Shown here: positions 33,195-55,786 of the stretch, one piece after another | Numbering within the stretch: the stretch's first letter is position 1 | Layout of the letters: the number at the start of each line of letters is the position of its first letter | NCBI GenBank assembly: GCA_965552055.1 | Contig: CBEVQO010000002.1 | Span: 256,001 to 320,000, forward strand | Source of the DNA: an uncultured bacterium | GTDB taxonomy: Bacteria; Hydrothermota; UBA3073; NMUJ01; CBEVQO01 | Length of the DNA: 64,000 nucleotides | Direction: 5' to 3' | Notes under the pieces: model-generated | What the model was told of the DNA's origin: nothing | The model's database searches: none | What the model saw: only the letters and a program-made list of their open reading frames with translations | Made by a program: the position numbers and the translations under genes

Positions 33195-33236
33195 AATCTC
33201 CCTTGACTTTCACCTAAAAATGGATATATTTTCGAG

Positions 33237-33560
33237 ATGGAAAAATTAATTAATAAATTGAAAAAATGGGGAGATGAAATAGGAAAGGAAGTATTTGGCA
33301 AAAGTATGGGACAAAAATTAGTCGATAATTTTGCAAAATCATTAGAATGTGCAAGAAGTATGGCTATCGAAGTAACTACTGATGAGGGTAAAAAAATTTT
33401 ATTTTATCTTGATGGGCTGAGAAAAATTTTAGTAAGTGGCTTAAATGTGAAAACACCCTTTGGCAATGTTTCACGAAAGGAAGCTATTATTGCTTTTATA
33501 GAGTGGAAATTATATCCCGGAATAAAACCTGGACATATACGCCGCAAGAATGGCGGTTAG
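33237..33560 (+). CDS. Hypothetical protein
   Basis: 107-aa ORF with promoter TTGACT-N16-TATATT 6 nt before the ATG; overlaps the next gene. Confidence 0.6.
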   Translation: MEKLINKLKKWGDEIGKEVFGKSMGQKLVDNFAKSLECARSMAIEVTTDEGKKILFYLDGLRKILVSGLNVKTPFGNVSRKEAIIAFIEWKLYPGIKPGHIRRKNGG

Positions 33561-33975
33561 AGTTAAAATAAAAATAAAAGTAGGAAATGAAGAAATAGAA
33601 ACAACGGCCCTTGCGAATTCTGGCTATGAAGCTTTTAAAAAACCCGAAATAATTTTGCCGGAGACACTCGCAAATAAACTTGGAATAAAGGAAGACAAAT
33701 TCAATTTCAAGAGAGTGCATTTTCAAGATATAAAAGGTGCATTTAATTCCCCTGTTTATCAAAACGCTGCTATTATTTGGCTAAATATTAATCCTGATAG
33801 AAAAGTAACTGTCGATGTAGTTGTTACAGATAGAGAAGAAGAAGTTTTATTGAGTGATAAACTAATAAGTGCACTCGGCATAGATATTGTAGATGCAGGC
33901 GAAGGTATCTGGAAATTAAGGGAAGACCCTCCTCATATTTTTAGAAAATCCGAAAGAAGACAGGTATGGAGTTAA
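33550..33975 (+). CDS. Clan AA aspartyl-protease-like protein (archaeal-type family, Asn at the catalytic Asp position)
   Basis: ETTALANSGYE..PEIILP..LA..LG; EVLLSD.LI.ALGI. Confidence 0.6.
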   Translation: MAVRVKIKIKVGNEEIETTALANSGYEAFKKPEIILPETLANKLGIKEDKFNFKRVHFQDIKGAFNSPVYQNAAIIWLNINPDRKVTVDVVVTDREEEVLLSDKLISALGIDIVDAGEGIWKLREDPPHIFRKSERRQVWS

Positions 33976-34512
33976 TTAAACTTTTTTGAGCTTGCCATCT
34001 ATCTCAAAATTGTTACCACCTAAATGATGTACTATTTTTACCTTATCAATATCCCAGTATTCTCCAAATACTCCTTCTTTTGCTTCTGCATGCACTATTT
34101 CTCCCACAAAAATCGTATATCTGCCGATATCAAAAGTATATTTCAATTTGCATTCTATAAAAGCAACGCATTCTCTTATCCATGGACATTTAACATTTTT
34201 GCCTTTCATCGGAGTTAATCTTGCCGCTTTAAATTTATCAACTTCACTACCAGATTTTGTACCGCATACCCATATTGCATTTAATAAACTTTCATCAGGA
34301 ATATTTATGGTAAATTCTTTTTCTTTCATTATTAAATCATGTGAATATCTTTCTTTTCTAACGCTTATTGCTACAAGTGGCGGACTACTGCATACAGGCG
34401 TCACCCATGCAATAGAAATTATATTGGGATAAGAAGGTCCATTAACGGTAACAAGAACACAGGGACCATTATTCACCAGTCTATAAGCATATTTCAAATC
34501 CACTTCTCTCAT
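33976..34512 (-). CDS. Flavin reductase family protein
   Basis: PCVLVT..NII.IAW..P.PPLVAISV..EFTINIP..CG..SG..VDKF; ATG at 34512 after SD GGGGGTGAG (ORF track starts at 34539). Confidence 0.9.
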   Translation of the reverse strand: MREVDLKYAYRLVNNGPCVLVTVNGPSYPNIISIAWVTPVCSSPPLVAISVRKERYSHDLIMKEKEFTINIPDESLLNAIWVCGTKSGSEVDKFKAARLTPMKGKNVKCPWIRECVAFIECKLKYTFDIGRYTIFVGEIVHAEAKEGVFGEYWDIDKVKIVHHLGGNNFEIDGKLKKV

Positions 34513-34520
34513 CTCACCCC

Positions 34521-35480
34521 CTATTTCATTATTTGCCATAGCCTTTTGAAATTCACATCTTTTATCCTTCGAATTAAACTCAATTTATCTTTCATACCCA
34601 TTGCAAGAATATACAGCAAAAATTTCTTTAAAATCGCGTTTTCAATACCTATGTTTTCCAGAATTAATCTTTCCCATATTATCATCCCTTCCGTTATTCC
34701 ATCACAATCTGTAAAATCTTTCAGCAAGTAAAAAGTATATTTCACGGGTTTTGCCGAAAAATATCTTTTTGTAAGTTTTTTGAATAAATTAAAATCAATT
34801 TTTACCTTCTGCATAAACATTATAATATCAAGTAGCCATTTCAAGCTTGCAAAACCTTCCTTCAACACATGGTTACATAAGTAAATCAGCTCCTGTTCCG
34901 GTTGCATAATGAAAAAATCTCCTTCTTTCTTTACATTTTCCCATATTTCATCGGGTTCTATCCTAAAAAACAATCTCTGAAAAGGACTTTTCTGGTTCAC
35001 AATATGCCAGTGTACTTCTATCATCACTTTTCCAAGAAAAGATTCATGGTTTCCTTCATTACTATAAAGTTTTCTGTATCCCATCTCTTTTAAAATTTTA
35101 ACAATTTCAGGATAGTCTTCTTTCTTTACAAGAACATCTACATCATTTAACTCTCTGGCACCAATATCTTTATAAACCGTCCTTAACATCCTTATACCTT
35201 TTAATGGAATGATTGGAATACCCTGCGCTCTTTGTATCAACCTATCAAATTCTGATAAAAACAAAACATTCCTGTAAACGGTTTGATTATAAAGTTTATG
35301 TATTTCTGCCAGTAAACTTTTATTTAATTTCTTGTCTATTTTATTTTCTGTAATTTTCGAATAGAGAAAAGGTAAAACATCAATCAAAAAGGGATTTTTT
35401 AACGCTTTTTCAATAAATTTCTCGAGTTCATGTAAATTTACTTCTGCAGGTCTTAAAAGAATTCCAAGGTATTTTCTCAT
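34521..35480 (-). CDS. Nucleotidyltransferase family protein (NTP_transf_5-like)
   Basis: PLKG...Y...R.LNDVDVLV...IEVHW...LIYLCNH...LKWLLDI. Confidence 0.87.
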   Translation of the reverse strand: MRKYLGILLRPAEVNLHELEKFIEKALKNPFLIDVLPFLYSKITENKIDKKLNKSLLAEIHKLYNQTVYRNVLFLSEFDRLIQRAQGIPIIPLKGIRMLRTVYKDIGARELNDVDVLVKKEDYPEIVKILKEMGYRKLYSNEGNHESFLGKVMIEVHWHIVNQKSPFQRLFFRIEPDEIWENVKKEGDFFIMQPEQELIYLCNHVLKEGFASLKWLLDIIMFMQKVKIDFNLFKKLTKRYFSAKPVKYTFYLLKDFTDCDGITEGMIIWERLILENIGIENAILKKFLLYILAMGMKDKLSLIRRIKDVNFKRLWQIMK

Positions 35481-36949
35481 TTTACTTTAACGATTTTTCT
35501 TACTTTAAATATTTTTCCGGTTTCAAGTGTTACAAAATACACGCCTGCTGGTAATTTTTCTGTTTTCCATTTTATAGTATAATAACCGGGTTCATATTGT
35601 TTTTTAGCGATAACTTCAATACATCTACCTGCTACATCGAAAATTCTTATTTTAACAAAAGATTTTTTTGGTATTGCGAATCTTATCATCATATAATTCT
35701 TAAATGGATTTGGGTAAACGGGATATAATGCGAACACTTTTGGTAGCAAATCCGGTTTATAAGTATCTGACTTTCCCTGCAAAGCATATATTTCTTTTTC
35801 GGTTATAAGAAAAACTTTTGCATCACACATTATGGGAGAAACTTTAACTTTTCCTTTTAGCTCTTCTTCATAAATTTTCTTTCCGGTTTCAATATCAAAT
35901 GCGAAGAATTTTCCTTGACTTGAGATACAGTAAATGATATTCCCCGAAATGATAGGAGAAACTGGCTTTTTTCCTGTGAATTCACCGAGTTTTTGGCACC
36001 ATTTTACTTTACCAGAAAACATGTTGATGCAATAAAGATATTCCCCTTTATATGCTGCTATTAAGACAACTTCATTGTTTCCGACTGCGATATTTGACAC
36101 TTTTAACTTTTCTGCCTTTAATGCACGCTTCAAAGGCGGTCCTACAAGGTATTCTGCCTGTGGCAACGGGATAAACTCTGTGGCTATTTCAATCTTCTCT
36201 CTTTGCCTCATTTTAATATCTTTAAGTAAATTATATTTCCATGCCAATCTACCATTATCTTTATTTACAGCGTAAAGATAGGGGTCAAAGCCACCGGGTG
36301 CGAAGAATACAAAATAACTCGCAGATGAAGGATTAAGAGACCTGAAAGCATTTTTAGTTGAAAATTCCCAGAGTTTTTCACCTGTTTCAATGGATATCGC
36401 ATAAATTTTACCATCATTTGAAGAAATATAAATCTTTTTATTTCTCACAACAGGCATTGAATGAATGAATTGCAAAGTGCTTATTTTCTTCTTCTCTCCT
36501 TTCTCTTCGATTATAAATTCTTTATAGGGTCTTCCTTTTGGATACAATAACTTTTCGCCATAGGGCAGTATTCCTCCCCTTGTTATACCAAGATTTTTCT
36601 TACAGATTGAAAATCTGCCTGTTTTTACATCGACCTTATAATAAATTCCCTTATCTGTTAAAAAATGACATTTTCCCTTTTTAATCGTTATAAACTCCGA
36701 AGGTCTTCCTTCCAGTTTTACCTTCCATCTAATTTTACCGTTCCATGTATTTATCGCAATCATTTTGCCTTCTTTCGTCCCGAACACAAGAATTCCCTCA
36801 TAGTAAACAGGATGTGTCACAATATCTGTCTCTGCTTTATATGTCCACAAATGTTTAAAAGGTGGTTTGATTCTTTCTCCTATATTTCTCGTAGCACTCA
36901 AATCGTATCCGGGATATAACCAATTTGTGAATAATATAAATAACAGCAT
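35477..36949 (-). CDS. PQQ-like beta-propeller protein with T9SS/FlgD-like C-terminal domain
   Basis: Repeated G.(I/L)YA...TG..LW blades; tail YPNPF...IFDVAGR...LPAGVYFV...RKIVKVK. Confidence 0.87.
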   Translation of the reverse strand: MLLFILFTNWLYPGYDLSATRNIGERIKPPFKHLWTYKAETDIVTHPVYYEGILVFGTKEGKMIAINTWNGKIRWKVKLEGRPSEFITIKKGKCHFLTDKGIYYKVDVKTGRFSICKKNLGITRGGILPYGEKLLYPKGRPYKEFIIEEKGEKKKISTLQFIHSMPVVRNKKIYISSNDGKIYAISIETGEKLWEFSTKNAFRSLNPSSASYFVFFAPGGFDPYLYAVNKDNGRLAWKYNLLKDIKMRQREKIEIATEFIPLPQAEYLVGPPLKRALKAEKLKVSNIAVGNNEVVLIAAYKGEYLYCINMFSGKVKWCQKLGEFTGKKPVSPIISGNIIYCISSQGKFFAFDIETGKKIYEEELKGKVKVSPIMCDAKVFLITEKEIYALQGKSDTYKPDLLPKVFALYPVYPNPFKNYMMIRFAIPKKSFVKIRIFDVAGRCIEVIAKKQYEPGYYTIKWKTEKLPAGVYFVTLETGKIFKVRKIVKVK

Positions 36950-36957
36950 TTCTCCTC

Positions 36958-37086
36958 CTAAGATTTATCTACCCCCAGATTACACTGCAAACCTGTTATA
37001 TCGCCTGCTGTCTGGCATTTATTACATTGTGCAACTGCATAAATTTTCTCTGATTTTACCTCCGGCTCTTTAAATTCTTTTTTCAT
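36958..37086 (-). CDS. Small Cys-containing RiPP-precursor-like peptide 2 (42 aa)
   Basis: SD AAGGAGGGG then MKKEFKEPEVKSEKIYAVAQCNKCQTAGDITGLQCNLGVDKS*; paralog of the adjacent peptide; below the ORF-track length cutoff. Confidence 0.85.
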   Translation of the reverse strand: MKKEFKEPEVKSEKIYAVAQCNKCQTAGDITGLQCNLGVDKS

Positions 37087-37097
37087 ATCCCCTCCTT

Positions 37098-37232
37098 TTA
37101 AGATTCCTTTGGCAAAATATTACAATCCAATCCCCCTATCTCTGCTATTGATACACATTTGCCACATGCCTGAGCTATTACATAGATTTTCTCACTTTTA
37201 CATTCGGGTTCATGCCATTCTTTCTTTTCCAT
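37098..37232 (-). CDS. Small Cys-containing RiPP-precursor-like peptide 1 (44 aa)
   Basis: SD AGGAGGTG then MEKKEWHEPECKSEKIYVIAQACGKCVSIAEIGGLDCNILPKES*; overlaps the last 55 nt of the giant gene. Confidence 0.85.
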   Translation of the reverse strand: MEKKEWHEPECKSEKIYVIAQACGKCVSIAEIGGLDCNILPKES

Positions 37233-40200
37233 TTTGCACCTCCTATTCCTATACGGAATATCTTACCGGATGTTGTAAATGTAATTACTCCTTGAGCGAC
37301 ATTTAGCATTGGAGTAGATTCTATTTTTTGTCCCGGGTCAAATTTCCATAATATTTTTCCTGTTTTTTCTGATACCGCTATTAATCCCTTTTCTGTACCG
37401 ATATAAATCTTTCCGTTGTACACCAGGGGTTTAGTTGTTGGCTTTGCACTAATGTTCAGAGGATATTGTGCCCAGCCCCAGGGATTTGGATTTCCATCAA
37501 TATCATAACAATAGATATTACCAAGTGTATCCGCAAAGTATATTTTACCCCACCAGTACCATGGTCCTTTTATAGCCGGAGCATTAAGTACATCCTGCCA
37601 AATTAAATCATAAGGCTGAGCTCTTAAACTATCGAGGCAATAAACATTTTTCTTAATGTTGCCAAAGTAAATCCTATAGTGGCTACCTGCCACTCTTCCA
37701 AATGCCGGTATATTAACGATATCTCCATCTGTTCCGTATTTTGCCTGCTCTACTCCTGTACCCGCACCGATTTTGTAAAGCGTATCGTCACATGAACCAC
37801 CATGCAGGAAACCGAATCCGTATCCCGGCATCGCTCTTATCGCGCCTCCTGTAGAGAAAGACCAGATAACACTGCCATCACCTCTATCAACTGCATAGAA
37901 ATTACCATCCTTTGCTCCAAAGTAAATTACACCACCATATTCAAATACACCGGAGATTATAGAATCACCAATATTCGTCCGCCATATCACATCACCATCT
38001 GTCCTGTTAACTGCATATAAAGTGCCAGCAGATGTGCCAAAGAACAAAGTATCACCTCTCACACAAATCAAATCACTTGCATAACCTCCATATTTTTTCT
38101 TCCATAAGAGATTACCCAAACTGTCGACAGCATACAATGTGCCGGATTTTGTAGAATAATAACTGGCACCATCAAATGCATGACCTATTCCTGAAGTTAC
38201 ATCTTTCCTGAATATCCTGATACCTGGATGTTGCCACTTTAGATCGATGTAAGCGGAATCTTTCCAAACTATTTGTGCACCATTAAGTTCTTCTTCATAC
38301 AATTCTCCTGAATGCTCTCCCATATAATTTTCACAGAAGATATAAATACCTGCACCATTCGCAGAAATATTTTTGTAACATGTAGTATCAAATAATAGAC
38401 CGCTGTAAGTATCGGAGTAAGCAGATGTTTTTATCACCCGCAAAGCTTTTGAAAGAGAGGACATATTCATAAACCATACATTTTCAAGAGTATCTATTTG
38501 TGATGTTGTATCGAGAATGAGACCCGATATTCCATCGCATAATAATCTGCTGATACTAACATTTCCTTTCAATCTTACTTCTGGATATTTTACACCCTGC
38601 TGTGTGGATGTTATTGAAGGCATTAAACCTTTTGCTATGAATTTGCCTTTTGCTATAAGATTTGCACCTACTTTTACTTCTGCCAGTGAGTCAATTATAA
38701 AAGCCGAATTTTGATCGATGGTAAGAACATTCTGCACTTTTAGAACAGATTTTCCTGAAAGGACGAAATCTGCATCCTGGAATTTGAGGTTATAGAAGTA
38801 ATTATTTTGTCCCTGTATTATTTTTACACTATCTTTTGCGATGACTATTTCTCCAGCTGAAGGCGTGAATGTTCCACCTGTATCTATCCAGTCACCCATT
38901 ACAATGTGAGTATAACTGCCAGGGTCAAATTCTCCCTTTAGAATCTTGAAATCACCGTAAATTGTTAGAGGACCTGTTGCAGTAACAGATGCTACCTGCT
39001 TTGTAGAATCTTTTTCTTCTTTCTTTGTAGAATAAGAATTTTCGATTATAAGATTATAAAACTTACTTTGCGATATTTGTTGCGGTTGATCACCGCAGAA
39101 AATGCAAGTCGAAGAATCAGGGATAAATTCACCGTTATTTATCCAGTCTCCTTTGATTCTTATAGTATCATCATTTGCCTTAAATACTCTTCCTGCATTT
39201 ATTTGTAAATCGTTAAGTATCACCAAATTATTCGTCAGTTTTATTGTATCTGCGTCTATTGTGAGGTTATAGAATGTATCTTCGGGTACATCCATTTTTG
39301 CCTGCAATATAACTGTGCCTGTTTGTGGCATAAACTTACCCTGATTAATCCATGAAGATGTCTTGAAAATAGCTCCTTCTCCTCCTTTGAATACTGCGCC
39401 TGTCCCAATATGGAAGCTATCTGTAACAGTGACCGTAACTCCTGCTGCAAGCGAAAGCGTATCGCCAGATATAACCAAGGACTTAAATGTTTCCGAATTC
39501 GTTATACAATTAGTTCCATCGAAAGTTACGACTCCTGCTGTCTGCTGGAATGTTCCGTTGTCAATCCATGTACCTGCGCAGAATATTGTAGATTTTGAAA
39601 TAAGATTTATTCCACCGCCTTTTTCTATCTTCACATTTCCATTGCAATCAAGATACATTCCGGGGACCGTCAAATTTACATTCGCTCCATTTTTCACAAA
39701 TATTGCAGCACATTGTGCAGTAGTGTTCACGGTTGGATCGAAAGGTGCATCCTGAATTATAACCTGATCTGTTGCAGTAGGCACTGTGCCATCCTGCCAG
39801 TTAGAAGGATTATCCCATCTATCATCAACTGTGCCTGTCCATACATCTGCAAGTATCCATTCTATTCTTGCGTACTGCGTAGTTGTATCATAAGCATCTC
39901 CTGCCTTATCTCCGGAATATGCTACCATGGTTACAATCGCAGAATCAGGGGAAGTGCATTTTAAATGGAAATTATACTGACATGAAGCATCATAAGAGTG
40001 CCCACTAAATGTAGCCGTATATCCTGCATTTCTGTAAATCTGTAAGAATGTTCCACCTGACTCGATATTTGTGAAATTAATGCCATCGAGTGCAGCAATC
40101 TGAGCATCTTCCCATATCCTCAATCCTCTCTTACAAACTCTATTTACATTCAATGCAGTTACATCTATCTCTCCTCTTACTTCAAATCCAAAGTAAGACA

Positions 40201-43200
40201 AATTATTTATACTCGTTATAGTTGGTGTTACTCCATTTGCACTGAATTTTCCGCCATTTTCGATAAACAATGTATCTGCTACTTTAAGTGTACAACTGCC
40301 ACTAAGCTGTAAGAGACCTCCGGAATTCACAATTATGTAAGAGTTAGCACTGACAACAGAGCTATTGAGTGTTAAAATACTATCAACAATTATCGAATCT
40401 CTAATAGTGTGTCTTCTATTCACGAAATCAAATTTCCCTTTCTTAATCCACAATTTTCCATCTATTTGAGTGCCTGTCTTTGTAACAACCTGTGTTCCTG
40501 AATCTATTATCACATCATAGAAATTATTTGTCGATTTCTGATATATTTCCTGATTTTCTCCGCAAAGTATAATTTCACCTGCTGATGGCGTAAATGTACC
40601 GAGAGTATCATTCCAGTTACCCTTCACATAGTGCGTGTAAGTACCTGGCACAAATTCTCCTGCTTCTATTACAAAATCTCCATATATCCTTAGTGAACTC
40701 TGTGCTGTCACTGTTCCGGTTGATTTCACAATCACACTATAGAAATTATTCTGGGTCAATTGTGTAATATTTTGGGATGTTCCTGCAAATATTATCTTTC
40801 CTCCCGTTGGTCTAAATGTGCATCCTGTTTCTATCCAATCACCTTTTACCGTATGAGTAAATGTATCTGGGACAAATATACCCGATGCAAGCTCTATATC
40901 TCCATAAATCCGTAATTTAGATAGTGCTTTTAAAGTATCTGTTTTTTCAATCTTTATATCGTAGAAATTATTCCCATTGCCCAATTTGACTGTAGATTTG
41001 CTTCCCAAGAAGATAACCTTACCCGATGTAGGTGCAAATGTACCTGATACTGTATTCCAATCACCGTAAATCCTGTGAGTATAACTGCCAGGTATAAACT
41101 CTCCTGATAAAAGTGTTAAATCTCCTTTAATTACTAAACTATCAAGTGCGGTTACAGATGCAGTTGGCGCCATACTCAAATTATAAAGATAATTTCCTGT
41201 GCCTAATTTTATCTGCTGCGCACCTCCTGCAAGATAAACAGTACCATCATCTGCTTTGAATTCGCCTCCTGAAGCATCAAAATCACCCCGTACTTCAAGG
41301 ACATTATCGGACGGTATAAAGACTCCCGATTTTACAGTAAAATCATTTTTTACAAAGATATCTGTCTTCTGCCATATTGTATCGCCATCGATCTCAAGAT
41401 TTATGAAATAGTTACTTGCTTTTTGCCATATTTCACCTTTTCCTGTTAAGACTATTTTTCCGCCAACCGGATTGAATGTCCCTCCCGTATCCACCCAATC
41501 ACCACCAATATAATGCGTAAAACTACCTGCAATAAATTTACCTTTATTTATTACAAAATCACCATGCACATGTAAAGAATCAAAAGCTTCCACACTTGTA
41601 AGGCAATTTATCTCGACATTATTAAAGTAGTTTGTCTGACTTGAGGTGATTTTCTGATAATTTCCTGTAAACTTTATTTTTCCTCCTGTTTGATGAAATG
41701 TTCCCAATACATCACTCCAATCGCCTTTAACTTCATGGGTAAAGGTATCTGGATTGAATGTACCTGTTATCGTTATATCCCCATAGATCTTCAGCGGTGT
41801 TTTTGCAGTTACAGTACCTGCTATTTTAATATTTGCAAAGTTATTATCTTGTGCCTGCCATATTTCTGAATTACCGGTAAATCTTATTTCACCACTTGTA
41901 GCTGTAAATGTTCCTCCTGTATCTATCCAGTTTCCTTCAACATAATGGATATAACTTGCTGGTGAAAATTCGCCTTTCAGCAACACAAAATCGCCTTTTA
42001 TATTAATCGGTGACTGACATAGCACTTTTCCCGAATTCTTATTAATCGTTAAATTATAGAAGTAACTTTGCGGTGTTAGATTTATTACCTGCTGGTAATC
42101 TCCACAGAATATTATTTCACCTGAATCTGCATAGAGTGTTCCATTTACTATTAAATCTCCTTTTAAATACAGTTTAAATGTATCACAATGTAAATAAGCG
42201 CTATCGTCTATTCTAAGGGACATGCAATATGCATTCGTATCGAGGTATGGGAATCTAACAGCAGTATCTGGTATTACGACATCTTCTGTATCCGTAGGCA
42301 CTCCTGGTGGCGACCAGTTATTGGGATTGCTCCATAAACTATCAACATCTCCCTGCCATACTCTCTGCGCAATCCAGTAAATGTGAGCTTTATTAACCTC
42401 TTCATCATAACTCTCACCTGCTTTTGCACCCGAATAATTTACCATATAAATCACTGTAGAATCTCCACCACCATCTGCATAAACATTCACACTGCAAGAT
42501 GCATCAAAATAACAACCTGTGAAGTTTTGAATAAATAGACCTTTCCTGTAAATTTGCAGATGTTTCCCTTTATTACCCACTTTCTCAAAACTCACATTAT
42601 TCAAACTAATTATTTCTGCAAGTGTGTCAATATAGAATCCATCACTATCCGCATATGAGAATTTCAATCTTTCACAATTTAATTTTCCTGAAAATCTAAA
42701 TGAAAAGCGATTCAATGTATCGAGTGCAGTTATTTGCGGTGTCAAACCTGTAAACTCACAATAAGAACCTTCCTGCGCCTTAAATGTTTCTCCTACTTTC
42801 AAAATAGATGCTCCCTGCATTATTAAAGTATCATTAATCACAATATATTTTCCTCTCAATTCTCCGCCTGTCATCTTTAAATTGCCGGAAATTATCACAC
42901 TATCTTCAACTGTATGTACTCCTGTTTGTATATCAAGTTCTCCTGTGAGTAACTTTAATTTTGAATTTATTTTAAGACCGGTTAATGGAGTAACTTTTTG
43001 AGAGTTTAATGTCAGGTTGTAGAAATTGTTTTGCGAAGATGTGATAATTTCTATGGTATCACCTTCAAATTTTATCTCACCTGCTGTTGGATTAAATTTA
43101 CCATTTTGGTCGTTCCAATTACCTTCGATTATATGAGTAAATGCCCCGGGTTCAAATCTTCCACCGCTTATTGTGATATCGCCCTTCACTCTAATAGGCG

Positions 43201-46200
43201 TTTCTGCTATTATCGTATCTGTAAGGTTTGGAGTTATATCAAGATTTGCAAAGTAATTATTTTCACCCTGATAAATTTTTGATGTTCTTCCTGTTAATAC
43301 AATTTTACCATCTGTAGGCTGGAAAACCCCTCCTGTATCAATCCAGTTACCTTCAACAGTATGAGTATAACTACCTGCATAAAATGTTCCTTTCTTCAGT
43401 ATGAAGTCTCCTTTTAATGTAAGAGCAGAAGATGCTGTTAACTGAGATAAATTCTTTTCTATTATAATTGTATTGAAGTAATTACCATTTGCTAATTCTA
43501 CCTGCGCAGAAGCATCCCCTCTAAATACAAATTTGCCGGAGTCAGCCGTAAAGACCCCTTGAGATGTAAAGTTTCCATAAACGATATGGGTATAACTCCC
43601 GGGATTTAAACTTCCAGACTCTATCGTAAGATTACCTTCACAGATGATTGATGATTTTAAGTAAGTATTGGATGTTTTAATTGTGAAATTCTGGAATCTA
43701 TTTTTAACAGTATCCTGTAGCACATTTGATACACTTCCTGTAAACCAGACATCAGCATTTGCTGGGAATACAACCACTCCTCCTGTGTCAATCCAGTCTG
43801 CTCCTACTTTAATAAGCGAAGGTGCATCAAATACCCCGGAATTCAAAACAAAATCTCCTTTAAGGGTTATATTTGTTTTTGCACTCAAAGTATCCTGAAC
43901 TTTTATTTCAATATTTGCAAAGTAATTATTTGCGCCTTGCCATATTTCTCCTTCTTTACCGTCGAACAATATCTTTCCTTCTTCTGCTGTAAATACCCCT
44001 CCCGTATCAATCCAGTCACCCCGCACCGTATGGGTGTAAGAACCTGCTTCAAATATACCCGAAGATAACATGAAATCACCGTAAATTTTCAATGCACTCT
44101 GTGCAAATACGGTATCACTTGCTCTAATTTCAAGATTAGCAAAGTTATTATTTGAACCTTGAATTATCTTAAATTTATTTCCATCCAGTATTATCTTCCC
44201 AGAATCTTGTGTAAATATAACTGCTGTATCAACCCAATCACCTGCTATCTCGTGCACATAACCCCACGGCTCTATCACTCCTGATAACATGTAAAGCGCA
44301 CCATTAACATCTATAGGCGAATCAAAGTAGACACTATCTGCATTTATTTCCATCTCGTAGAAGTAATTATCTGCATCCGTCAAAATGTGTTGCACTGCTC
44401 CATTGAACACAATTTTGCCTGCAGAAGGTCTAAATATACCTCCAGTATCCACCCAGTCACCTTTTACATAATGAGTATAAGATGAAGGCTCAAATCCTCC
44501 TTTATAAATCATAAAATCACCTTCTATTGTCAATCCATCTTGTGCAATTAATTCCCCGCCTGTGCTATTTATTATTATCTTATCAAATGCGCTTAAACCA
44601 CCCTTTACATATTGGTCGCTTCCACCATTAAATACAACATCAGAACCTCCGTGAATAAAATTACCGTCATTTATCCAGTCACCTCCAACATAAATCGTAT
44701 ACCCTTTTCCTTTCAATGTTTGCTTGATGTGTAAATCATTCATGCATATCAGCTCAGCATTCAGACTGTCTATTGCATTTATTACAAGGTTATAAAATGT
44801 ATCCTGTGGTAATGTCATATCTGCAAGAAACTCAACCGTGCTTTGCTCATAATGGAATTTACCGGAATTATTCCAGCTATAAACCTGTATCAAGGTATTT
44901 GTTCCTCCATGGAAATCTGCATTTGTGCCTATTATGAAATTATTTGTAATTTTCAAAGTATCGCCATAATTTACACTTACATTTGAATTATCCGCAAACT
45001 TCAAATTATAGAATGTGCATTTGCCTGAAATTACCCCTGTTGACTCTATTACAACCCATCCACCTGTATGGTTGAATACGCCATCATTTGTAAAGTCATT
45101 CCATACAAACAATGTTCCATCTGATAAATCAAATTGACCTTTAATTGTAAAATCACCCTGCACATGTAATATTTTATCCGAATTCATTGTAAGCTTTGCT
45201 CCACTCTTTATCAACACTCCTGCACATGTATCTGTGATATTTAAAATTGGATAATTATTATTCGCATTTGCTGGTATTATTACGAGTTCTGTATCTACAG
45301 GTGGTCTTCCTAATGACCAGTTTTTGGCATTGTGACTCGCAGGCAGACCAGCAGCTACTGCATCCCACCAGCTGCTATTTGTTCCTCCAACCCACACATC
45401 TGCACTCGTCCATTCAATATTGGCACCATTAACTTCATGATCATAGTTTTCACCCGCTTTACTTCCGCTTGCTCCACTCATTATTATATCAACATTATTA
45501 CCACCACCGTCAGCATAAACATTTGTATCACAGTATTGATCATAAGAATGCAAACTAAATGTAGCGTTAAAATCAGCATTTCTATAAATTTGCATATAAA
45601 CTCTATGTCCCGTGCCTCTTTGATTTGTAAACTTTACTTCATCTAACCTCGTAATCTGTGCCTGATTATAAATACATAAGCCTCCTGTATCTATATAAGA
45701 TATGGTTAAACCATCTATTTCGAGTTCTCCATAGACATTGAAATCAAAGGGTTTTGTTGTATCTTTTGCAGTAATTTCCGGAGAACCCGAAGTAAATATC
45801 TTTCCTCCATTTGCAATGTAAAGTTGTGTTCCCAGCTTCAATGCCGGGCTTCCTATTAATTTAAGCACCCCTCCTGATTGCACATTAAGCCCTGTTCCTA
45901 CTTCAAGTACAGATGTACCAAGATCAAGCGTTCCATAAACATTTACACCGGAAGCTACTTTATGTGTTAACCCATCTGAAAGATATAGTTCACCTGCGTT
46001 TATCAGCAATGCTCCATTTATATTAAGACCATCTTCCGCTGTTGCTACTCCTGTAACATCTATTGTTAAATTATAGAAGTTATTTGTCGCAGATGTATAA
46101 ATGTGCGGATTTTCACCATTAAGAATTATTGTCCCACCTGTAGGTTTAAATACTCCTCCTTTATCATACCAATCACCGCCTATTTCATGAGTAAAGTTAC

Positions 46201-49200
46201 CGGGTATAAATGTTCCTGACAATATTGCAAAGTACCCTTCTGTTTTCAGTGCTGTCATAGCCCATACAGTATCCGAAGGGTTTATTTTCACATTGTTGAA
46301 ATGATTACCAATTTTTGCATAAATCTTCTGTTTCGTTCCATCAAATATTATGGTCGAAGTTGTATCTATAAATATTCCTCCGGTATCTGCCCAGTTGCCT
46401 CCAATTCTATGAGTATATGCATTTGGTACAAATTCACCGGATAAAATCACAAAATCGCCATTTATATCCAGTGAATCTGCTGCTATAAGTTTATTTGTAA
46501 CCTCACATATTACATTATTGAAGTAATTACCTGCCTTTGTATTTATCTGCTGTGTAACTCCGTCAAAAATTATTGTTCCTGATATTTGATTAAATATTCC
46601 TCCCTCATCATCCCAATCACCTGCCACCCGATGCGTGAAACTACCAGGGTTAAATGTACCTGTTATTGTAATATCGCCATCAACATTTATAGAAGTATAT
46701 GCCGTTATGTTTCCAGAAATCGTAAGATTATAAAAGTTATTACCTGTACCCTGATAAATACCTTTATTAACACCGGAAAGTATTATCTCGCCTTCCTGTG
46801 CTTTAAACTCTCCGAGAGTATCAATCCAGTTACCATTAACTGTGTGAGTATAATCACCCGGTATGAATTTTCCTTTGATTTCAACATCGCCATTTATTTG
46901 CAGATTACTTTTTGCGATCGCTGTTCCTTCACATACAAAATCGTTGAAAATTTCATCATCTGTATAAATTTGTGATGAATCAATGAAGATAACCTTACCT
47001 GCATCTTGTTTAAAGTATCCGCCTATTGCATAAAAATCACCGCCTATTCTGTGGGTATAAGATTGAGCATAATAAACTCCCTGCAATATTTTAAAATCAC
47101 CCATAATCTTTATAGAATCAAGTGCTGTAACGGTATCATTTGCCTGTATCACTAAATTGTTGAAGTAATCATTTGCACTAACATTTATTTGTTGCTTATT
47201 ACCTGCAAATATCACAGTTCCCGTTAAATCCTGTATTACACCTGTTTCGGAATCCCAGTTGCCCTCTACCTGCAATTCGAAAGTATCGAGTATTAATTGA
47301 CCCGATGTAATTTTGACATCTCCTTTTACAACTACATCTGTTTGTAATGTTAAATTATTATCAACATCTATTTCTATATTATGGAAGTAATTTCCTTCTT
47401 TCTGTTTGATAACTGCATTTTGTCCGTTAAACAATATTTTTCCGGAAGTCGGTCTGAAAGTTCCATTTATTTCATACCATCCACCACCTACTATATGTGT
47501 GTAAACACCTGGTATGAATTCTCCCGATTTCAATGTAATATTGTTCTTTATAATTATTGGACCACCTGCTGTTATGCTTCCTGTTTGCTTATTGATAACA
47601 AGGTTGTAAAATTCTCCTGAATCTCCGAGTGCTATTTGATTTGCAAGTCCTGTAAATTCTATAGTCCCGTCACCTGCATCAAATCTTCCCATATTATGCA
47701 TATTTCCTTTTATAACGAGAGTATAGGAACCTCCGGGTCCTTCTTTAAATCTTGCACCTGTTTCGATGTTTAAGGAAGCAATTGTATCATCCATATCAAG
47801 AACAGGGTAATTTGTAAGTCCTCCTGGTATTACCACATCTTCTGTATCTGCTGGCAGACCAACTGGATCCCAGTTAAACGGATTACTCCACAAAGTATCT
47901 TGCGCCCCTGTCCATACTTTCTTTATCATCCAGATAATTTCTGCACCATTGACTTCCTCATCGTAATCTTCACCTCCCTTGGGACCAGAATAATCTGAGA
48001 AAATTAACCTTACCGAATTACCATAACCATTTGCATAAACATTTGTATCACATGAAGCATCAAAGGAGCAGCCAAGAAATTCTTTCTCAAAATCGGCATT
48101 TCTATGAATTTGTAAATGCCTGCTCGGATTGCCTCCCGGTTGTACACTCTGGAATGATACATTCGAAAGATCAATTATTGTAGCACTTGTATCAATATAC
48201 ATACCATTGACATCGGCTCCTGAAAATACAAGGCGCAAAACTTCGATTTCTCCTCTTACTTTAAAACTATAATAATTTATTCCATCATTCTGAATTTTAG
48301 GCGTCGTACCGAATGCCTCAAATTTGCCGTCAATCAAAGCCGCTTTTCCTAGCGTAAGTACACATTGATTCTCCATATAAAGGACACCTGTTTCTTTTAT
48401 TATCAAAGAATCACTCACTTTTAACTCACTCTGTCCAAGATGTAATGAATCTTCCGCTATTACCTTGCCATCTACGGTATGGGTTAAAGCATCACCAAGA
48501 TAAAATGTTCCTGAAATTATTCTCAAATTACCTTTTACTGTTATATTTGTCTGCGTTTCTATTCTTCCTGTCCCTTCAATTATTAGATTATTAAAATGAT
48601 TTGTTGCACCCTGATTTATAGTGGCATTTTCTCCTATCAATTTCACTGTTCCTGTAAGGTCTGTAAATGTTCCTCCTGCATCCGACCAGTTACCTCCGCA
48701 TATTACAGTATCTTCTATAGAGAATGTACCCTGTTGCAATGTAAAATCACCACCTATTAAAAGTTTAGTCTTCGCAGTAGCAACTCCAGATACATTAATT
48801 GTCAAATTGTTGAATTTATTACCTTCTTTCTGATAAATAACAGGTGATATTCCATCAAGCACCACACCACCTTCTGTTTGCACAAACTCACATAGAGTAT
48901 CGACCCAATCACTCGCAATATAGTGAGTATAAGCACCAGGAAGTATAACACCCGATTTCATCACAAAGTCACCATTTACATCTATCTGTGACTTAAATTC
49001 AACAGTATCTGTGCTGCCTACATCTATCACAAGATTCCATAGCTTGCTACCTGTATTTAATTGTAAATCTTTTGTGCTTCCTTGCAAAATTACTGTCGCT
49101 GCATCAAAGTCAGTATTTCCTCCTGCTTCTATCCAATCACCATCCACCCATAAAGTACATGCTACGGCATCTTTCAAATATCCACTCTGCAAAGTAAAGT

Positions 49201-52200
49201 TATTTACTTTTATATTTGTCTCAAGATTAACTACACTTCCGGTATTTATGGTGAGATTTGCGAAATTGTTATTTGCACCCTGTTTTATGTATATGGTATC
49301 TGCATCATCAAGCACTATCTCACCCTGTGATGGTTTAAATGTACACAATGCATCATCCCAGTTGCCACAAATGTAATGAGTGTAAGCACCCGGAATTATT
49401 ACACCATTTTGCATTATAAATTCAGAGTTTACATCGATAGATGACGCAAATTCAACTGTATCCTGAGCATTTTGTAACGCAATTTTTAGCTTATAGAAAT
49501 TATTCCCTGTTCCTTGCTTTATTTGTTGTTTGCCTGTTCCACATATCACTATCATTCCGGAATCCGGTGTAAACACTCCTCCTGCATCATCCCAATTACC
49601 CTTCACATAATGAGTAAAGTTACCGGGATTAAATTCTCCTTGCCTCAATTTAAAATCTGTAACCGTGATTGATGTCTTCGCATAAAGAACACCTCCTGTC
49701 TTATCAACAATTAATTTATTGAATGTTATTGCATTCCCTTTTATCTCTTGATTTCCTGTGCCATTAAAAATCACTATTCCAGAACCTGCATCAAAACTTC
49801 CATTGTTCATGAAATCACCACCAACATATAATGTACAATTAAGTGCTCTTAATGTCTTTGTTGATAATATCTTCAAATCATTCTTCACCACAAGCTTCGT
49901 ATAAGGTATCTTCGCATTAGCACCTATTGTGAGATTGTAAAATACTTCATTTGGCACTATTGTATCCCTAACGATAACTTCACCTGTTTGGCAATCAAAT
50001 GTTCCACCTGAATTGTTCCAACCTTTTACATCAAATACTGCGTTGTTTCCTCCATAAAATGTAGCTCCTGACAATAAGTTAAAACTATTTGTTACTTTTA
50101 CTGTTTCGCCATCTGCGATACCAACACCTGCTCCTGTGATTTTTATATTTAAAAATGTAGTACTCCATATCTTTGCGTTGGCACCATAAAATTCAACTAA
50201 ACCGCTTCGCTGATCAAATACTCCTCCCATATTTTTCCAGTTGCCTCCTACTCTTATCACACTATTCGAATCTTGCACAATCTTCGCACCGGATTTTAAT
50301 TCAACATCTCCTGATACATTCAAAGTACATACAGTATCTACATATAGCATTGTTGAAGAAAGTAAAAGTATTGATGCACATTCTGCGTGCAAAGTGTCAA
50401 CATGTGGATATACAGACCTTTGAGGTATTAGGACTTTATCGTTGAGTTTAGGAATATCGTCCGGTGGATCCCAGTTATGCGCTTTGCTCCATCTCCAGTG
50501 AGTACCTGCTGGCCAGGGGGCACCCGTACCTCCAACCCACACTTTACCCATTGTCCACAAAACAGCACCTCCATTTGTCTCCTCATCATACGCTTCTCCA
50601 GCTCCACTACCAGCATAATAGAAAACTTTTAACTTTGCTACAGTATCCGTAGTGGATACACCACCATCTATGTGAATATTAACATCACCTGCATAAACGG
50701 TATCATAATAGTGGTCATAAATAGTTTTATCAAAAGTACCACTTCTATAAATTTGCAGAAATCTATCGGTACCTGCTGTGCGCTGTAAACTATCAAATCG
50801 AACACTCGAAAGATCTGTCAATGTTGCTGCTGGATAAATGTATAAACCATTTGAATTTAAGTATCTGAAAATTGCACCTTCAACATCAATTTCACCTTTT
50901 ACTCCAAAGCCATAATATTGTCCTGAATTTCGATGTGTTATCAATGGCTGAGCATTTCCTACGCTTCTCGTTACAAATTTACCTGTTGATGCAACTTCTA
51001 TCCCTTTTACCAGCTGTAACTGTGCTGCTCCTTCCATTTTCATTAAACCTGCAACTATCACAGTATCCGCTGCTATGCCTCCGCCAGAATTTTTCATCAC
51101 CACACCACCTGATTGTCCTATTTCCATTTTGCCCGTTAGTAAACCTTTTGAATTGAGTATTAAAACACCCGATTTTACTTTTGTACTGTCAAGAACCATC
51201 AAATTACTTTGTGCCTTTACTGTATCACTTTCTATCACAAGTAGATACAAAGTATCTGTCCCAATGTCTATATTCTGTACCTCTCCGTTCAAAATAATTT
51301 TACTATTTTTCACAAGAAGCTTTCCATCTGCTGATTTAAAATCACCTTTTATTCTGTGAGTAAAGTTACCTCCATCGAATACACCTTGCTGATAGATCCA
51401 AAACATTCCATGAATATTCAGAGAATCTTGCGCTTTTATAGTATCGGATGTGCTTATTCCAAAGTTATAGAAGTAATTGCCTGTCCCAAGGTAAATATTT
51501 GATTTTCCGGGAAAACCAATCCAACCTGAAGTCGCATGGAAAATACCTCCTCTACTATCCCAATCTCCATAAACTTTCATTACTGTTTGAGGCGGAATAA
51601 ACTCACCTTGTGTTATAACAAAGTTACCTTTCACAATTATTCCTGTGTTTGCTTTCTTCGAATAAGCAGTATTTATCTCAAGATTATAAAAGGCATTCTT
51701 GGTTGTATCCTGATAAATAGAGTCAGCATATCCATCAAGTACTATTTTGCCAGAAGAAGGATTGAATACACCTCCCAAATCCCACCATGTACCGCCTATA
51801 TAGTGAGTATAAGAATCAGGATAAAATACGCCCGAAAGTATCTTAAAGTAACCATCAACATTTAATGAAGATTGAGCTTTTAATGAATCTTCTACTTCTA
51901 CCTTCACATTGTAAAAGTTATTTCCACTACCTGTTTTAACATCTTGTTTTATCCCTGTGAAATGCACGATCCCTGATGTCGGCGTAAATGTACCACCGGT
52001 ATCCACCCAGTCACCTTTTATCTCTATGTAGCTACCGGGTACAAAACTGCCTGATGAAAGAGTAAAGTCACCAAAAATTTTCAAAGGAGTAAGCGCCTGA
52101 CAATTTGAAGATATCTTCAGGTTATAAAAGTTATTCTTTGAAGTGTCTTGATATATTACCTGAATTCCTGTTCCATTAAATACGATTTCTCCAGACGATG

Positions 52201-55200
52201 GTGCAAACTTACCCTGCCTATCATCCCAATTTCCTTCTATGTAATGTGTGTAAGACTGAGGAATAAATTCTCCACCCAAAATTGTAAAATCACCTGTGAT
52301 CTTTAAAGAAGTTTGTGCTACTACACAATTTGTAACATTTATTTCAACATCAGCAAATTGATTATTCGCACCTTGCCATACATTTGAAGAATCACCATCA
52401 AATACAAACTTGCCAGAAGTTAATAATCTTCCTCCAGTATCATCGTAATCACCACCTACTCTATGTGTATAACTTCCGGCATCGTAACATCCTCCTTGTA
52501 TCTCAAAGTTTCCTTTCACAGTAATATCCGAAAGCGCCCATACTGTATCTGACACATTTATAACAAGATTGTTGAAGTAATCTCCTGTTAATAGTGTTAT
52601 CCTTTGTGTATCTCCATCGAAGATAAAAGTACCTGCATCTGCCCTAAACACTCCACTTATATTTTCAAAGTCGCCAGCTATTGTATGAGTAAAAGATTGG
52701 GGGTCAAATTCACCTTCCCTTATTCTTAACTTACCATCTATATCGAGCGAAGAATAGGCAACAACTTTCCCTGCTAGTTTATAAATATCAAGGTCATAAA
52801 TTGAACTGCTATCCGTTATCTTTATAGATTGATTATATTCACCTCTGAAACATAATTTACCTGTCCCGGGAATCAGCTTACCGTTATCTTCAAAATTACC
52901 AAAGATGTAAAGAACATTTGACTTCAATTTTAACTTTGCACCTGGATTTATCTTTACACTAAAAGCATATCCTGCAACATCAAGCACAGGGTCTCTTATA
53001 GTATCTGGTATTACTACATCTGAAGATTCATCTGGTACTCCTGCTGGCTTCCAGTTATTGGGATTACTCCACAAAGAGTCAACCGCTCCTGTCCAGCGTT
53101 TCTGTATGAGCCATTTTATCTCCGCACCATTTGTCTCTTCATCGTAAGCCTCTCCTGCTTTAGGACCGCTATACCCCGACACAAAAATTTTAACATTACC
53201 ACCTGCACCATCAGCATGGATATTTGTATCACATGTAGCATCAAAATATAAACCTATTAAAGTAACATTGTAAGTCCCTTGCCTATAAATATGCAAATGA
53301 GTGCTCGGATTACCACCAGGTTCAACATTCTCAAAAATAACATTGGAAATATTTTGTATAACTGCTGGCGTATCTATTACCATTCCTTCACTATTAGCAT
53401 AACTGAAATAAAGTTTTGTAATGTTTACAGTTCCCCTTATTTTAAATGAATAGTAAGTTGATGGAGATATGGATGTAACTGTAGGCGCTGCTCCCTCCGA
53501 GATAAACGAACCTGTTTCTCTTATAAGTACTCCTTTTGCTAACCTTAAAATAGAACTACCATAAAGATGCAAAACTCCATCACTCACAAGATTGCCTACC
53601 ACCACTAGATCACTACCTGATACATTAAGCTCACCCGATTGACCAATATAGACGCTATCTTTTAAAGTATCGTAGTAACCTGTTGAAAGATCAAATTCTC
53701 CTGAAACAACTTTTAGTAAACTATCCACTATTAATTTGCTGCTCATTAAAGCTGTACCTGTCACATTTATCGTTAACCTATTAAATTTATTACCCGAACC
53801 AAGATTAATTTGAGGAGATGTGCCTGCAAATACTATTTCGCCAGCTGAAGGAGAAAATGCACCCCCTGATACATCGAAATCTCCTTTTATTGTGTCAACA
53901 TAATTTCCAGGGTCGAAGCTTCCACCGTTTATTATCTTAAAATCGCCAAAAATTCTAAGACTCGTATTTGCTACTGCGTTTCCTCCATCAATTGTTAAAG
54001 AATAGAAATTATTTGTAGATGATGTTGTTATCTGAGGATTTGCTCCGGTTAAAATTATTTCTCCTGCTGTCGGTGTAAACTCAACTTGCGTATCATCCCA
54101 ATTCCCACTTATCCTGTGAGTATATGAACCTGGGTCAAATTTCCCACTTTCAAGATAAAGTGCACCATTCACAGTTATATTACTTAATGCTGTGACAGTA
54201 TTTGTGGGTCTTAAGATTAAATCATTAAAATAGTTGCCCGCACCCTGTGTAATTTGCTGGTTAACTCCACAGAAAACAATGCCTCCTTGAGATGCTTTGA
54301 AAATACCGCCCGCATCAGACCAATCTCCTTTTACAGTATCTCTGTAAGGCGAGGGTATAAATGTTGCATTATTTTGAATTGAAAAATCACCATAAATTGC
54401 AATACAACTTTCAGCTTCTACTGTATCTGCAACAATCCATAAGTTATAAAAATGATTTTGCGGTGAAGTGTAAATATATGTATGTGTGTTTCCACCAAGT
54501 TCAACACGCCCTGCATTTGGCTTAAATTCTCCATTTGTAACATCAAAATTACCTTTCACTTTCAATACATATGATTGTGGGTCAAAATAGGCATTTTCCA
54601 ATGTAAAATCACCATCAATAGTGAGATCGGACAACATTCGAATTGTATCACCCGAAAGCACCTCAAAGTCATAAAAACTATTTGTTGATAACTGTGTTAC
54701 TTTAAACAAAGAATTTGTTGTTGAAATACTTATTTTACCTTGACCATGCTGGAAAGTGCCTGCTTCTTCTAACCACTCTGTTCCCGAAAGATTTATTGTA
54801 TTGCCATTTTGATTGTAAGTGCCATTCTTCAAAACGAATTTTCCTTGAACCGTTATTGAAGTAACCTGGATAACAGTACCTGTTGCATTTATCACAAGAT
54901 CATTTAAATAAGATGTAGCACCTGTAACTTGTAAAGTCTCTACGCTACTTCCTGCAAATATCACACAACCTGTTCCACAATCAAAGTTCACTACCTTAAA
55001 ATCGCCTTTTACTGTCAAAGTCTCATCCTCTGCTCGACAGATACCAGTAGAAGTAACTACAAAATCATTTTCACAGGTTATATCTGTCTTCAAAGTACAC
55101 TCACCTGCTATTTCAAGGTTATAATAGGTCTCATCGGGTACGCCCATATCACCGGCAAGGACGACCGTACCCGTGCCATAATTGAATACACCATTATTTT

Positions 55201-55759: not shown

Positions 55760-55786
55760 ATTATAAACCGCTTTCGGGAGTGTCAA
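55760..55786 (-). promoter_or_regulatory. Promoter TTGACA-N15-TATAAT of the giant-protein operon, probably leaderless
   Basis: Perfect boxes; 6 nt to the ATG; no SD. Confidence 0.78.

Follow-up and report, generated by a model that had tools for sequence, protein, structure and literature searches.

Two short open reading frames lie between the gene of a giant secreted protein and that of a propeller protein in the genome of an uncultured bacterium: do they encode precursors of modified peptides and, if so, which enzymes would process them? The stretch of DNA that was analysed, 64,000 nucleotides long, is called the window below; C4, C6 and C7 are other contigs of the same genome.

Two short genes at the end of a giant gene

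Peptide 1 (44 residues) is encoded at 37098..37232 and peptide 2 (42 residues) at 36958..37086, both on the minus strand. The first-pass annotation had quoted them as ORFs of fewer than 60 residues, each with a strong Shine–Dalgarno sequence, and they exist exactly in this form: GGAGG is found at 37239..37243 (−), inside the tail of the giant ORF and 6 nt before the ATG of peptide 1, and again at 37091..37095 (−), in the 11-nt gap between the peptide genes and 4 nt before the ATG of peptide 2. That these genes are "hidden" holds for the ORF track used in that annotation, from which they are absent, but not for the public protein collection, in which they are already called, without a name or a Pfam match. 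Neither Pfam nor NCBIfam has a family for peptide 1, peptide 2 or 8 of their homologues. The ESM Atlas, which provides a lead only, gives a top match of 0.90 and clusters without a name.

The proposed paralogy is borne out by the pairwise alignment, in which 25 of 44 columns are identical (57%). The peptides have in common the leader K-K-E-[W/F]-x-E-P-E-x-K-S-E-K-I-Y, the spacing C-x-K-C-x10-C and a C-terminal serine. In peptide 1, the leader contains W6-x-x-P9, the predicted cut is after Q21, and the core contains C23-x-K-C26-x10-C37 and ends with S44; the corresponding elements of peptide 2 are F5-x-x-P8, Q20, C21-x-K-C24-x10-C35 and S42. When the whole genome (2.2 Mb) is searched by tblastn, one peptide retrieves the other with E 5.8e-8 and the next match has E 2.0, a gap which indicates that this genome contains no third copy and that the likeness is not due to chance.

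The leader had also been said to contain the RRE-binding motif Y-x-x-P-x-L. The aromatic-x-x-P part of this motif is present, but the actual sequences are W-x-x-P-x-C and F-x-x-P-x-V. The cysteine of peptide 1 occupies a position of the RRE motif that is usually aliphatic, which counts against a RiPP pathway.

The predicted operon

The giant gene (37178..55753, −; 18.5 kb) encodes a secreted repeat protein of 6191 residues, with a signal-peptide-like N-terminus and a C-terminal PQQ-type beta-propeller (PQQ_2/Beta-prop matches in the last ~330 residues). This protein consists of about six large modules, with W-x4-N-W and Y-D/E-E-E marks every 850–1000 residues; its repeats match no Pfam family and it has no T9SS-type tail. 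The start region of peptide 1 overlaps the final 55 nt of this ORF in a different frame, and the same overlap is found in L192, an independent contig of a near-identical organism.

Downstream of the peptides, the Shine–Dalgarno sequence of the next gene (35477..36949, −) overlaps the stop codon of peptide 2. The product is a PQQ-type beta-propeller protein of 490 residues (PF13360) with a C-terminal Por_Secre_tail domain (PF18962, T9SS-type; TIGR04183 over its cut-off), on which the giant protein may depend. It is followed by a nucleotidyltransferase-fold enzyme of the NTP_transf_5 family (34521..35480, −; PF14907, E 5e-44), which is coupled to the propeller gene by a 4-nt overlap. The last gene of the same-strand run (33976..34539, −) is flavin-reductase-like (PF01613); it is probably outside the system, and it is not seen after the propeller gene in the metagenome locus L190.

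A sigma70-type promoter, TTGACA-15 bp-TATAAT, can be read directly at 55760..55786 (−), 6 nt before the ATG of the giant gene. Genome-wide, 283 promoter sites have a 15-bp spacer, against 53 with 16 bp and 20 with 17 bp. A looser pattern, searched for on the minus strand from 33000 to 62000, gives no other perfect match and two weak ones within the giant gene; a scan for promoters and terminators in 33000–39500 gave matches at shuffle level. There is no Shine–Dalgarno sequence between promoter and ATG. It is likely, judging from these signals, that the mRNA of the giant gene is leaderless and that the operon starts here, and one transcript of ~22 kb would then run across the same-strand genes.

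The genome contains a second gene for a propeller protein with a T9SS tail (494 residues), in the locus L043 (C4:93651-102162), where it is flanked by two Wzc/Wzz-like genes on one side and by an O-antigen-ligase-like gene on the other. This 494-residue protein is the closer relative of the propeller protein whose gene precedes that of the NTP transferase in genome G018. Elsewhere in the window, an ordinary type II restriction-modification pair (a DNA methylase with an SNase-like tail and an MjaI-type restriction endonuclease) is encoded at 2438-4362 (+), and, at 31067-31588 (−), a protein of 173 residues whose tandem repeats are heptad-like, as in a coiled coil, and whose C-terminus carries a membrane segment.

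Conservation of the peptides

The first-pass annotation had made its reading depend on the existence of homologues, and relatives with the same leader and cysteine pattern are indeed found in metagenomes. A single peptide used as query against 5.8 billion proteins retrieves only itself (1 candidate of 1). A profile built from the two peptides gives 7 matches among 1.84 billion representatives (E <= 0.001): both peptides, four short homologues and P0004 (371 residues, 11 repeats), which was dropped as a repeat artefact. A wider profile adds two further homologues. P0007 was kept in the set although it lacks the terminal serine.

In the metagenome loci L190 and L191, the counterpart of the 6191-residue protein has 47% and 45% identity to it, and two such peptides are encoded at the end of each giant gene; the first has, in both loci, the core type of our peptide 2. 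In L190 a propeller gene follows the peptides, and this 13.8-kb contig contains no NTP transferase gene after them or after the propeller gene, and no maturase gene.

The peptides evolve under purifying selection: pN is lower than pS in all 15 pairs formed by the two peptides and the four homologues from L190 and L191 (pN 0.08–0.43, pS 0.29–0.95), and dN/dS between peptides 1 and 2 is 0.26. The frame of the first peptide, counted from that of the giant ORF, is −1 in the window, +1 in L190 and 0 in L191, with its own Shine–Dalgarno sequence each time, which suggests that it is translated on its own and rules out a conserved frameshift that would fuse it to the giant protein. A search for longer fused forms, at 105–2000 residues, found none, which is weak evidence. 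In L191 (2-2779), the giant ORF continues in frame through the whole first precursor, with a difference in length of one base compared to L190; this join may be a genuine fusion or an assembly slip.

In an alignment of 11 rows, the K, P and E residues and the aromatic position are kept, while the cores diverge. A short ORF with a conserved N-terminal aromatic-x-x-P leader and a variable core is the layout of an RRE-dependent RiPP precursor. The terminal serine is present in 11 of the 13 close homologues and in 22 of 28 distant precursors.

Candidate tailoring enzymes

The partners that had been predicted for such precursors, a PqqD/RRE protein, a radical SAM/SPASM enzyme, an HprK-like kinase and an S24/S26 peptidase, are all encoded in the genome. 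Only the NTP_transf_5 enzyme is encoded beside the peptides; it is the one member of PF14907 over the cut-off (two matches in the genome), and its motifs LKG, D113-x-D115 and HWH are present.

The RRE gene (C7:48554-48853; E 3e-16), the only PF05402 match in the genome, overlaps the gene of an HprK-like kinase which has the motifs LHS, GxxGxGKT and GDE, and which no HprK-related model matches at E <= 1. This pair is preceded by WecA-like, PEP-CTERM-ATPase-like and HD-GYP-like genes. A degenerate HD-GYP-like gene is found before the kinase gene both here (C7:47255-48588) and in an Elusimicrobia locus (L064:7797-9733).

On C6, the gene of the peptidase (50275-50709), the only Peptidase_S24 match, with S47, H82 and D97 kept, overlaps that of the radical SAM/SPASM enzyme (50613-51617; PF04055 and PF13186 over the cut-off, CxxxCxxC and CxxCx5CxxC present). 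It is important to note that the genome has four other SPASM matches, which counts against the pairing of the peptides with the C6 enzyme. Radical SAM genes of the window at 29378-30817 and 25492-26517 were considered as maturases and rejected, being poor matches to the enzymes of the related cassettes. The peptide operon contains no MsbA-like exporter; the best matches to the ABC-2 pairs of related cassettes are at C6:6147-8772, a putative link.

The link between peptides and enzymes

Since only the NTP transferase gene adjoins the peptide genes and the four other enzymes are encoded on other contigs, the pairing of peptides and enzymes rests on homology. Among 272 genomes of the phylum, 23, including this one, have a match to the C6 radical SAM enzyme at E <= 1e-30. 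The closest, G018, belongs to the same class. There, the neighbourhood check proposed in the first-pass annotation finds the kinase, RRE, radical SAM enzyme, a homologous peptide of 56 residues and the S24 peptidase encoded in this order in one operon. One source assigns the G018 peptide to Candidatus Stahlbacteria, which we take to be part of the WOR-3 phylum. For each of the four G018 enzymes, the best or only match in our genome is the gene on C6 or C7 (E 1.4e-4 for the peptidase and 9e-11 for the kinase).

The peptides themselves are related. The two-peptide HMM finds the G018 peptide at E 5.8e-5, and its best three matches among 3512 ORFs of radical SAM loci are the peptides adjacent to the radical SAM genes of G018, G137 and G138. 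Over the 272 phylum genomes, the two-row profile has a best E of 0.014 outside our genome and misses the G018 peptide. An eight-row profile (A5) finds, at E <= 0.01, 5 of these genomes: the two training genomes plus G137, G270 and G138, in each of which the match is the small ORF adjoining the radical SAM gene. In the reverse direction, a profile of five relatives' peptides encoded next to radical SAM genes, which excludes our pair, puts its members in the top two places among 60,755 six-frame segments (E 0.003 and 0.004). As the resemblance of three of these five to ours was known beforehand, the search was repeated with eight peptides found beside the best-scoring radical SAM genes of the phylum, ours again excluded and the high-scoring locus L131, which has no peptide, left out; the ranks are the same, 1 and 2 of 60,755, with E 7e-4 and 0.28.

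More distant relatives are wide-ranging. Around 82 related radical SAM genes from many phyla, a kinase is encoded in 35 loci, an RRE in 35, a peptidase in 28 and an NTP transferase in 15. When 28 precursors picked by hand from these loci, which represent the commoner subtype, are made into a profile, our peptides come at ranks 1 and 10 of 20,957 small ORFs, but with E values of only 1.4 and 7.3; in a six-frame search, E is no better than 5. These values are not significant, and a difference in radical SAM clade would explain this: in a quick tree of 27 rows chosen by hand, the C6 enzyme groups with those of G018, G137, G138, G270 and L045 (SH-aLRT 100) in a clade of 11 of the 27 rows. In Methanoregula (L102:6937-8429), four tandem cysteine-rich precursors with Trp leaders occur with several radical SAM genes, a radical SAM–kinase fusion, RREs and an S24 peptidase. 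In another relative (L010/G010; contigs C11, C31, C37, C60 and C74), seven radical SAM matches of the C6 type are distributed over five distinct cassettes, whose precursors differ widely.

Peptides, RRE and maturase genes thus co-occur, in one operon in G018 and G270 and in trans in our genome. The genes are also split in G137 and G138, where those of the radical SAM enzyme and peptide lie apart from those of the kinase, RRE, peptidase and NTP transferase, and where a T9SS-tailed protein of ~1990 residues is encoded directly after the former. In the same two genomes, a peptidase which is lasso-B2-like by its motifs is encoded between the RRE and the NTP transferase (L182:15096-15491 in G138, L181:3809-4201 in G137); to judge from these sequences, it appears to replace the S24 leader peptidase.

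The first-pass annotation saw the peptides as precursors of an uncharacterised class of modified peptides, and the homologues, the selection, the maturases in the genome and the G018 operon argue for this assignment. We conclude that the two ORFs very probably encode RiPP precursors.

Leader recognition

The linear polyphosphorylated peptides (LPP; LppA/K/B/S/D/N) offer a structural view of how such a leader is bound. D70 of LppB makes a hydrogen bond with the leader tyrosine in the LppB–LppA crystal structure (Popov et al., Nat Commun 2026, PMC13381572). At the matching position, the RREs that go with a Tyr-leader precursor all have an Asp (30 rows of 30). This Asp is lost in 3 of the 7 rows with Trp or Phe leaders and kept in 4; it is replaced by Ser81 in the C7 RRE, by Glu in G018 and by Gln in G021. 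Four RREs which lack the Asp and have no labelled leader have no recognisable precursor nearby. The covariation is suggestive of a C7 RRE tuned to Trp/Phe leaders, and only suggestive, since the leader labels of the 49-row alignment were set by hand (12 of the 49 have none) and the rows are related, not independent.

A proposed pathway and its alternatives

We consider it probable, from comparisons of sequences, that the two paralogous genes, which are under purifying selection, encode RiPP precursors processed in trans by a tailoring set encoded at three places of the genome, as follows. The RRE encoded on C7 would bind the [W/F]-x-x-P leader, and the radical SAM/SPASM enzyme encoded on C6 would introduce cross-links, most likely thioethers, into the three-cysteine core. 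Phosphorylation of the C-terminal serine would fall to the HprK-like kinase encoded on C7, and the NTP_transf_5 enzyme encoded beside the peptides would add a sugar (hexose) or a nucleotide to this phosphate. The S24/S26 peptidase encoded on C6 would cut the leader after the Gln found 15 positions beyond its aromatic residue. This would leave cores of 23 and 22 residues, with masses of about 2319 and 2267 Da before modification, which would be exported and probably function at the cell surface, considering that their genes seem to be co-transcribed with those of the giant secreted protein and of the propeller protein.

The position of the cut is deduced from LPP, whose peptidase needs the RRE and cuts 15 residues after the leader aromatic residue (PMC13381572: Tyr at −16, cut after −1). 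Counting likewise leads to a Gln in peptide 1, in peptide 2 and in 7 of the 13 close homologues, and the predicted cores begin at C-x-K-C or one residue before it. In paeninodin/pseudomycoidin-type systems, a terminal serine is phosphorylated by PsmK and glycosylated by PsmN (PMC6993621). The core Ser3 targeted in LPP is absent from our peptides, so that the kinase most likely targets the terminal serine, like PsmK; by the same analogy, the NTP transferase most likely adds a hexose or a nucleotide to the phosphate.

It may be that the mature peptides are thioether-stapled, phospho-glycosylated mini-subunits of the cell surface, docked on the paired PQQ-type propellers of the giant, adhesin-like protein and of its T9SS-tailed partner, or tied to them through the C-terminal phosphoserine, instead of diffusible antibiotics, an idea which we regard as doubtful. 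The propeller pair is found with the peptides in L190, with the NTP transferase in G018 and with both in the window, and in L191 the reading frame of the giant protein is also that of the first precursor. On the other hand, the 82 distant loci yielded no PQQ-propeller gene, which limits this link to the lineage.

The thioether detail is the weakest part of the pathway. The C6 radical SAM enzyme reaches no curated family cut-off, so that other chemistries are possible; its best NCBIfam scores are those of the heme b synthase AhbD (150, cut-off 500), GeoRSP (139, cut-off 400) and ScmE (135, cut-off 400), none of them a thioether maturase, and it is below the cut-off on the StsB, AlbA, SkfB and PapB models and matches no characterised thioether-forming family. 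It is nevertheless rather unlikely that the peptides are RiPP precursors in which this enzyme forms a C–C cross-link, or catalyses an epimerisation or a decarboxylation, and in which the cysteines are free for metals or disulfides. Besides the terminal serine, cysteine is the only core residue kept in the 28 distant and 13 close precursors, and conserved core cysteines with a SPASM enzyme are the pattern of sactipeptides and ranthipeptides. Among the nearest solved relatives of the C6 enzyme are SkfB (E 2e-20) and further peptide maturases.

The dispersal of the enzymes over three contigs raises the question of whether the pathway has partly decayed after the break-up of an operon, so that true members of the precursor family undergo some of the steps only, such as binding of the leader and its cleavage, or are relics. 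The kinase, with 196 residues, is about 70–120 residues shorter than its relatives (about 260–320 residues) and may be impaired. The peptidase and the kinase evolve fast, as judged from their E values to the G018 orthologues, and three genomes of the same order (66–99% complete) have no match to the NTP transferase or to the radical SAM enzyme at the thresholds used. We consider decay distinctly unlikely, however: the catalytic motifs of all the enzymes are intact, both peptides are under purifying selection, and the split layout is itself conserved in G137 and G138.

That the peptides are mini-proteins which bind a metal by CxxC and a third cysteine, stay unprocessed and serve the giant or the propeller protein, their likeness to RiPP leaders being incidental, would fit the presence of CxxC in 10 of the 13 close homologues and the association of the peptides with the giant gene in L190 and L191, the former on a contig without maturase genes. 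The PDB matches, to a glutaredoxin-like protein (E 0.08) and to anti-TRAP (E 2), go in the same direction but neither is significant. This hypothesis is very unlikely, since the strongest conservation is in the N-terminal leader and not in the cysteine region, peptide 2 has no fourth cysteine, the homologues of G137, G138 and G270 have only two cysteines and no CxxC, and the homologues are encoded next to a radical SAM gene (in G018, between it and the peptidase gene).

Last, a lasso precursor of the paeninodin/pseudomycoidin type is largely refuted and has hardly any probability left: the aromatic-x-x-P leader, the terminal serine and the kinase/NTP-transferase module, which are the part of the lasso likeness that stands, are indeed present, the model on which the RRE has its highest score is that of the Bacillota lasso PqqD (55/80) and the nearest named Atlas cluster is a lasso-leader family (score 0.77, a lead only), but the scaffold does not follow, as no lasso B2 peptidase or macrolactam cyclase C was found in this 97%-complete genome, whose only Transglut_core3 match is partial and in a 432-residue secreted-type protein, whose two strong Asn_synthase (PF00733) matches, located elsewhere, are complete genes of the glutamine-dependent AsnB type, and which has no homologue of the B2-like gene of G138, while the predicted register has no Thr at −2.

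Significance

Returning to precursors processed in trans, the cassette to which these enzymes belong is spread over many phyla, and no product was found for it in the literature. Our search found no description of an RRE–radical SAM–kinase–peptidase–NTP_transf_5 cassette or of its product; it covered neither subscription papers nor bioRxiv supplements. The present genome offers a minimal, single-copy set of enzymes and two natural substrates, so that the radical SAM chemistry and the NTP_transf_5 step could be tested with six small genes. The latter step is still unexplained: LppN was silent in the LPP study (PMC13381572). The locus also illustrates that the genes of such a pathway can be dispersed in the genome, in which case cluster-based mining misses them, and it is a natural test of a specificity rule of RREs, the Tyr-binding Asp being lost with Trp/Phe leaders. 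Giant secreted proteins and polysaccharide genes recur near such systems, which speaks for a role at the surface rather than for an antibiotic; if the peptides are surface subunits, a structure of the cell surface would be built or tagged by a RiPP pathway.

Relation to characterised peptide systems

The LPP systems are similar in several respects (PMC13381572): they have a discrete RRE, a soluble SpI/S24-type leader peptidase with Ser-His-Asp, an HprK-like kinase and an NTP_transf_5 enzyme, no lasso cyclase, and one to three precursors with a conserved leader. The four enzymes are all encoded in our genome, although not in a cluster, no cyclase was found, and the 15-residue register from aromatic residue to cut is possible. 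The link to polysaccharide genes is shared too, the C7 pair following WecA-like and PEP-CTERM-ATPase-like genes. The leader differs: LPP have the consensus YxxPxVLxHQxIxFETxxS and a phosphorylated core Ser3, whereas our peptides have a W/F leader, no FET and no core Ser3, and carry three core cysteines and a terminal serine. The LPP cluster, described as restricted to Bacillota, has an MsbA-type exporter, and none is encoded beside our peptides. Radical SAM has 0 mentions in the LPP main text and appears in one of 834 columns of the supplementary domain matrix (PMC13381572). LPP systems thus do without the radical SAM/SPASM enzyme of our set.

Sactipeptide and ranthipeptide systems (SkfB, CteB, PapB) combine a radical SAM enzyme with SPASM, an RRE and a short precursor with conserved cysteines. 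Our set has likewise a radical SAM enzyme with the SPASM cysteines and a cysteine core, but the enzyme is far below all of their NCBIfam cut-offs and belongs to no characterised thioether-forming family, the RRE is a separate gene instead of a fused domain, and the kinase, NTP transferase and S24 peptidase have no known counterpart in those systems. A stand-alone PqqD encoded near a radical SAM/SPASM or HprK-related gene is also a feature of SynChlorMet (ScmD/E/F), GeoRSP and HPr-rel-A; the TIGRFAM scores obtained here are all below the cut-off (ScmD 42/100, GeoRSP PqqD 35/100, HPr-rel-A PqqD 27.5/35, ScmE 135/400, GeoRSP radical SAM 139/400).

QhpC, the gamma subunit of quinohemoprotein amine dehydrogenase, is a small cysteine peptide cross-linked by a radical SAM enzyme, encoded beside a beta-propeller protein and bound to it. 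The comparison is an analogy only: no haem alpha subunit and no CTQ-forming Trp/Cys pair were recognised here, and our propellers consist of PQQ-type repeats on secreted proteins.

Paeninodin and pseudomycoidin (PsmK, PsmN; PMC6993621) have in common with our system an HprK-like kinase, an NTP_transf_5 enzyme with DxD, a likely terminal-serine target (our peptides having both the C-terminal serine and the kinase) and, for peptide 1, a W-x-x-P leader. They differ from it by the macrolactam cyclase and the B2 peptidase, which were not found here, and by the absence of our cysteine-rich core and radical SAM enzyme.

By analogy, the system likely belongs to an uncharacterised class which resembles the RRE–kinase–NTP-transferase–peptidase module of LPP and paeninodin, with the addition of a radical SAM enzyme of the sactipeptide/ranthipeptide type. 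Specific to this locus are the three-way split of the genes, the twin Trp/Phe leaders with an RRE that lacks the Tyr-binding Asp, and the placement of the peptides between two PQQ-type propellers.
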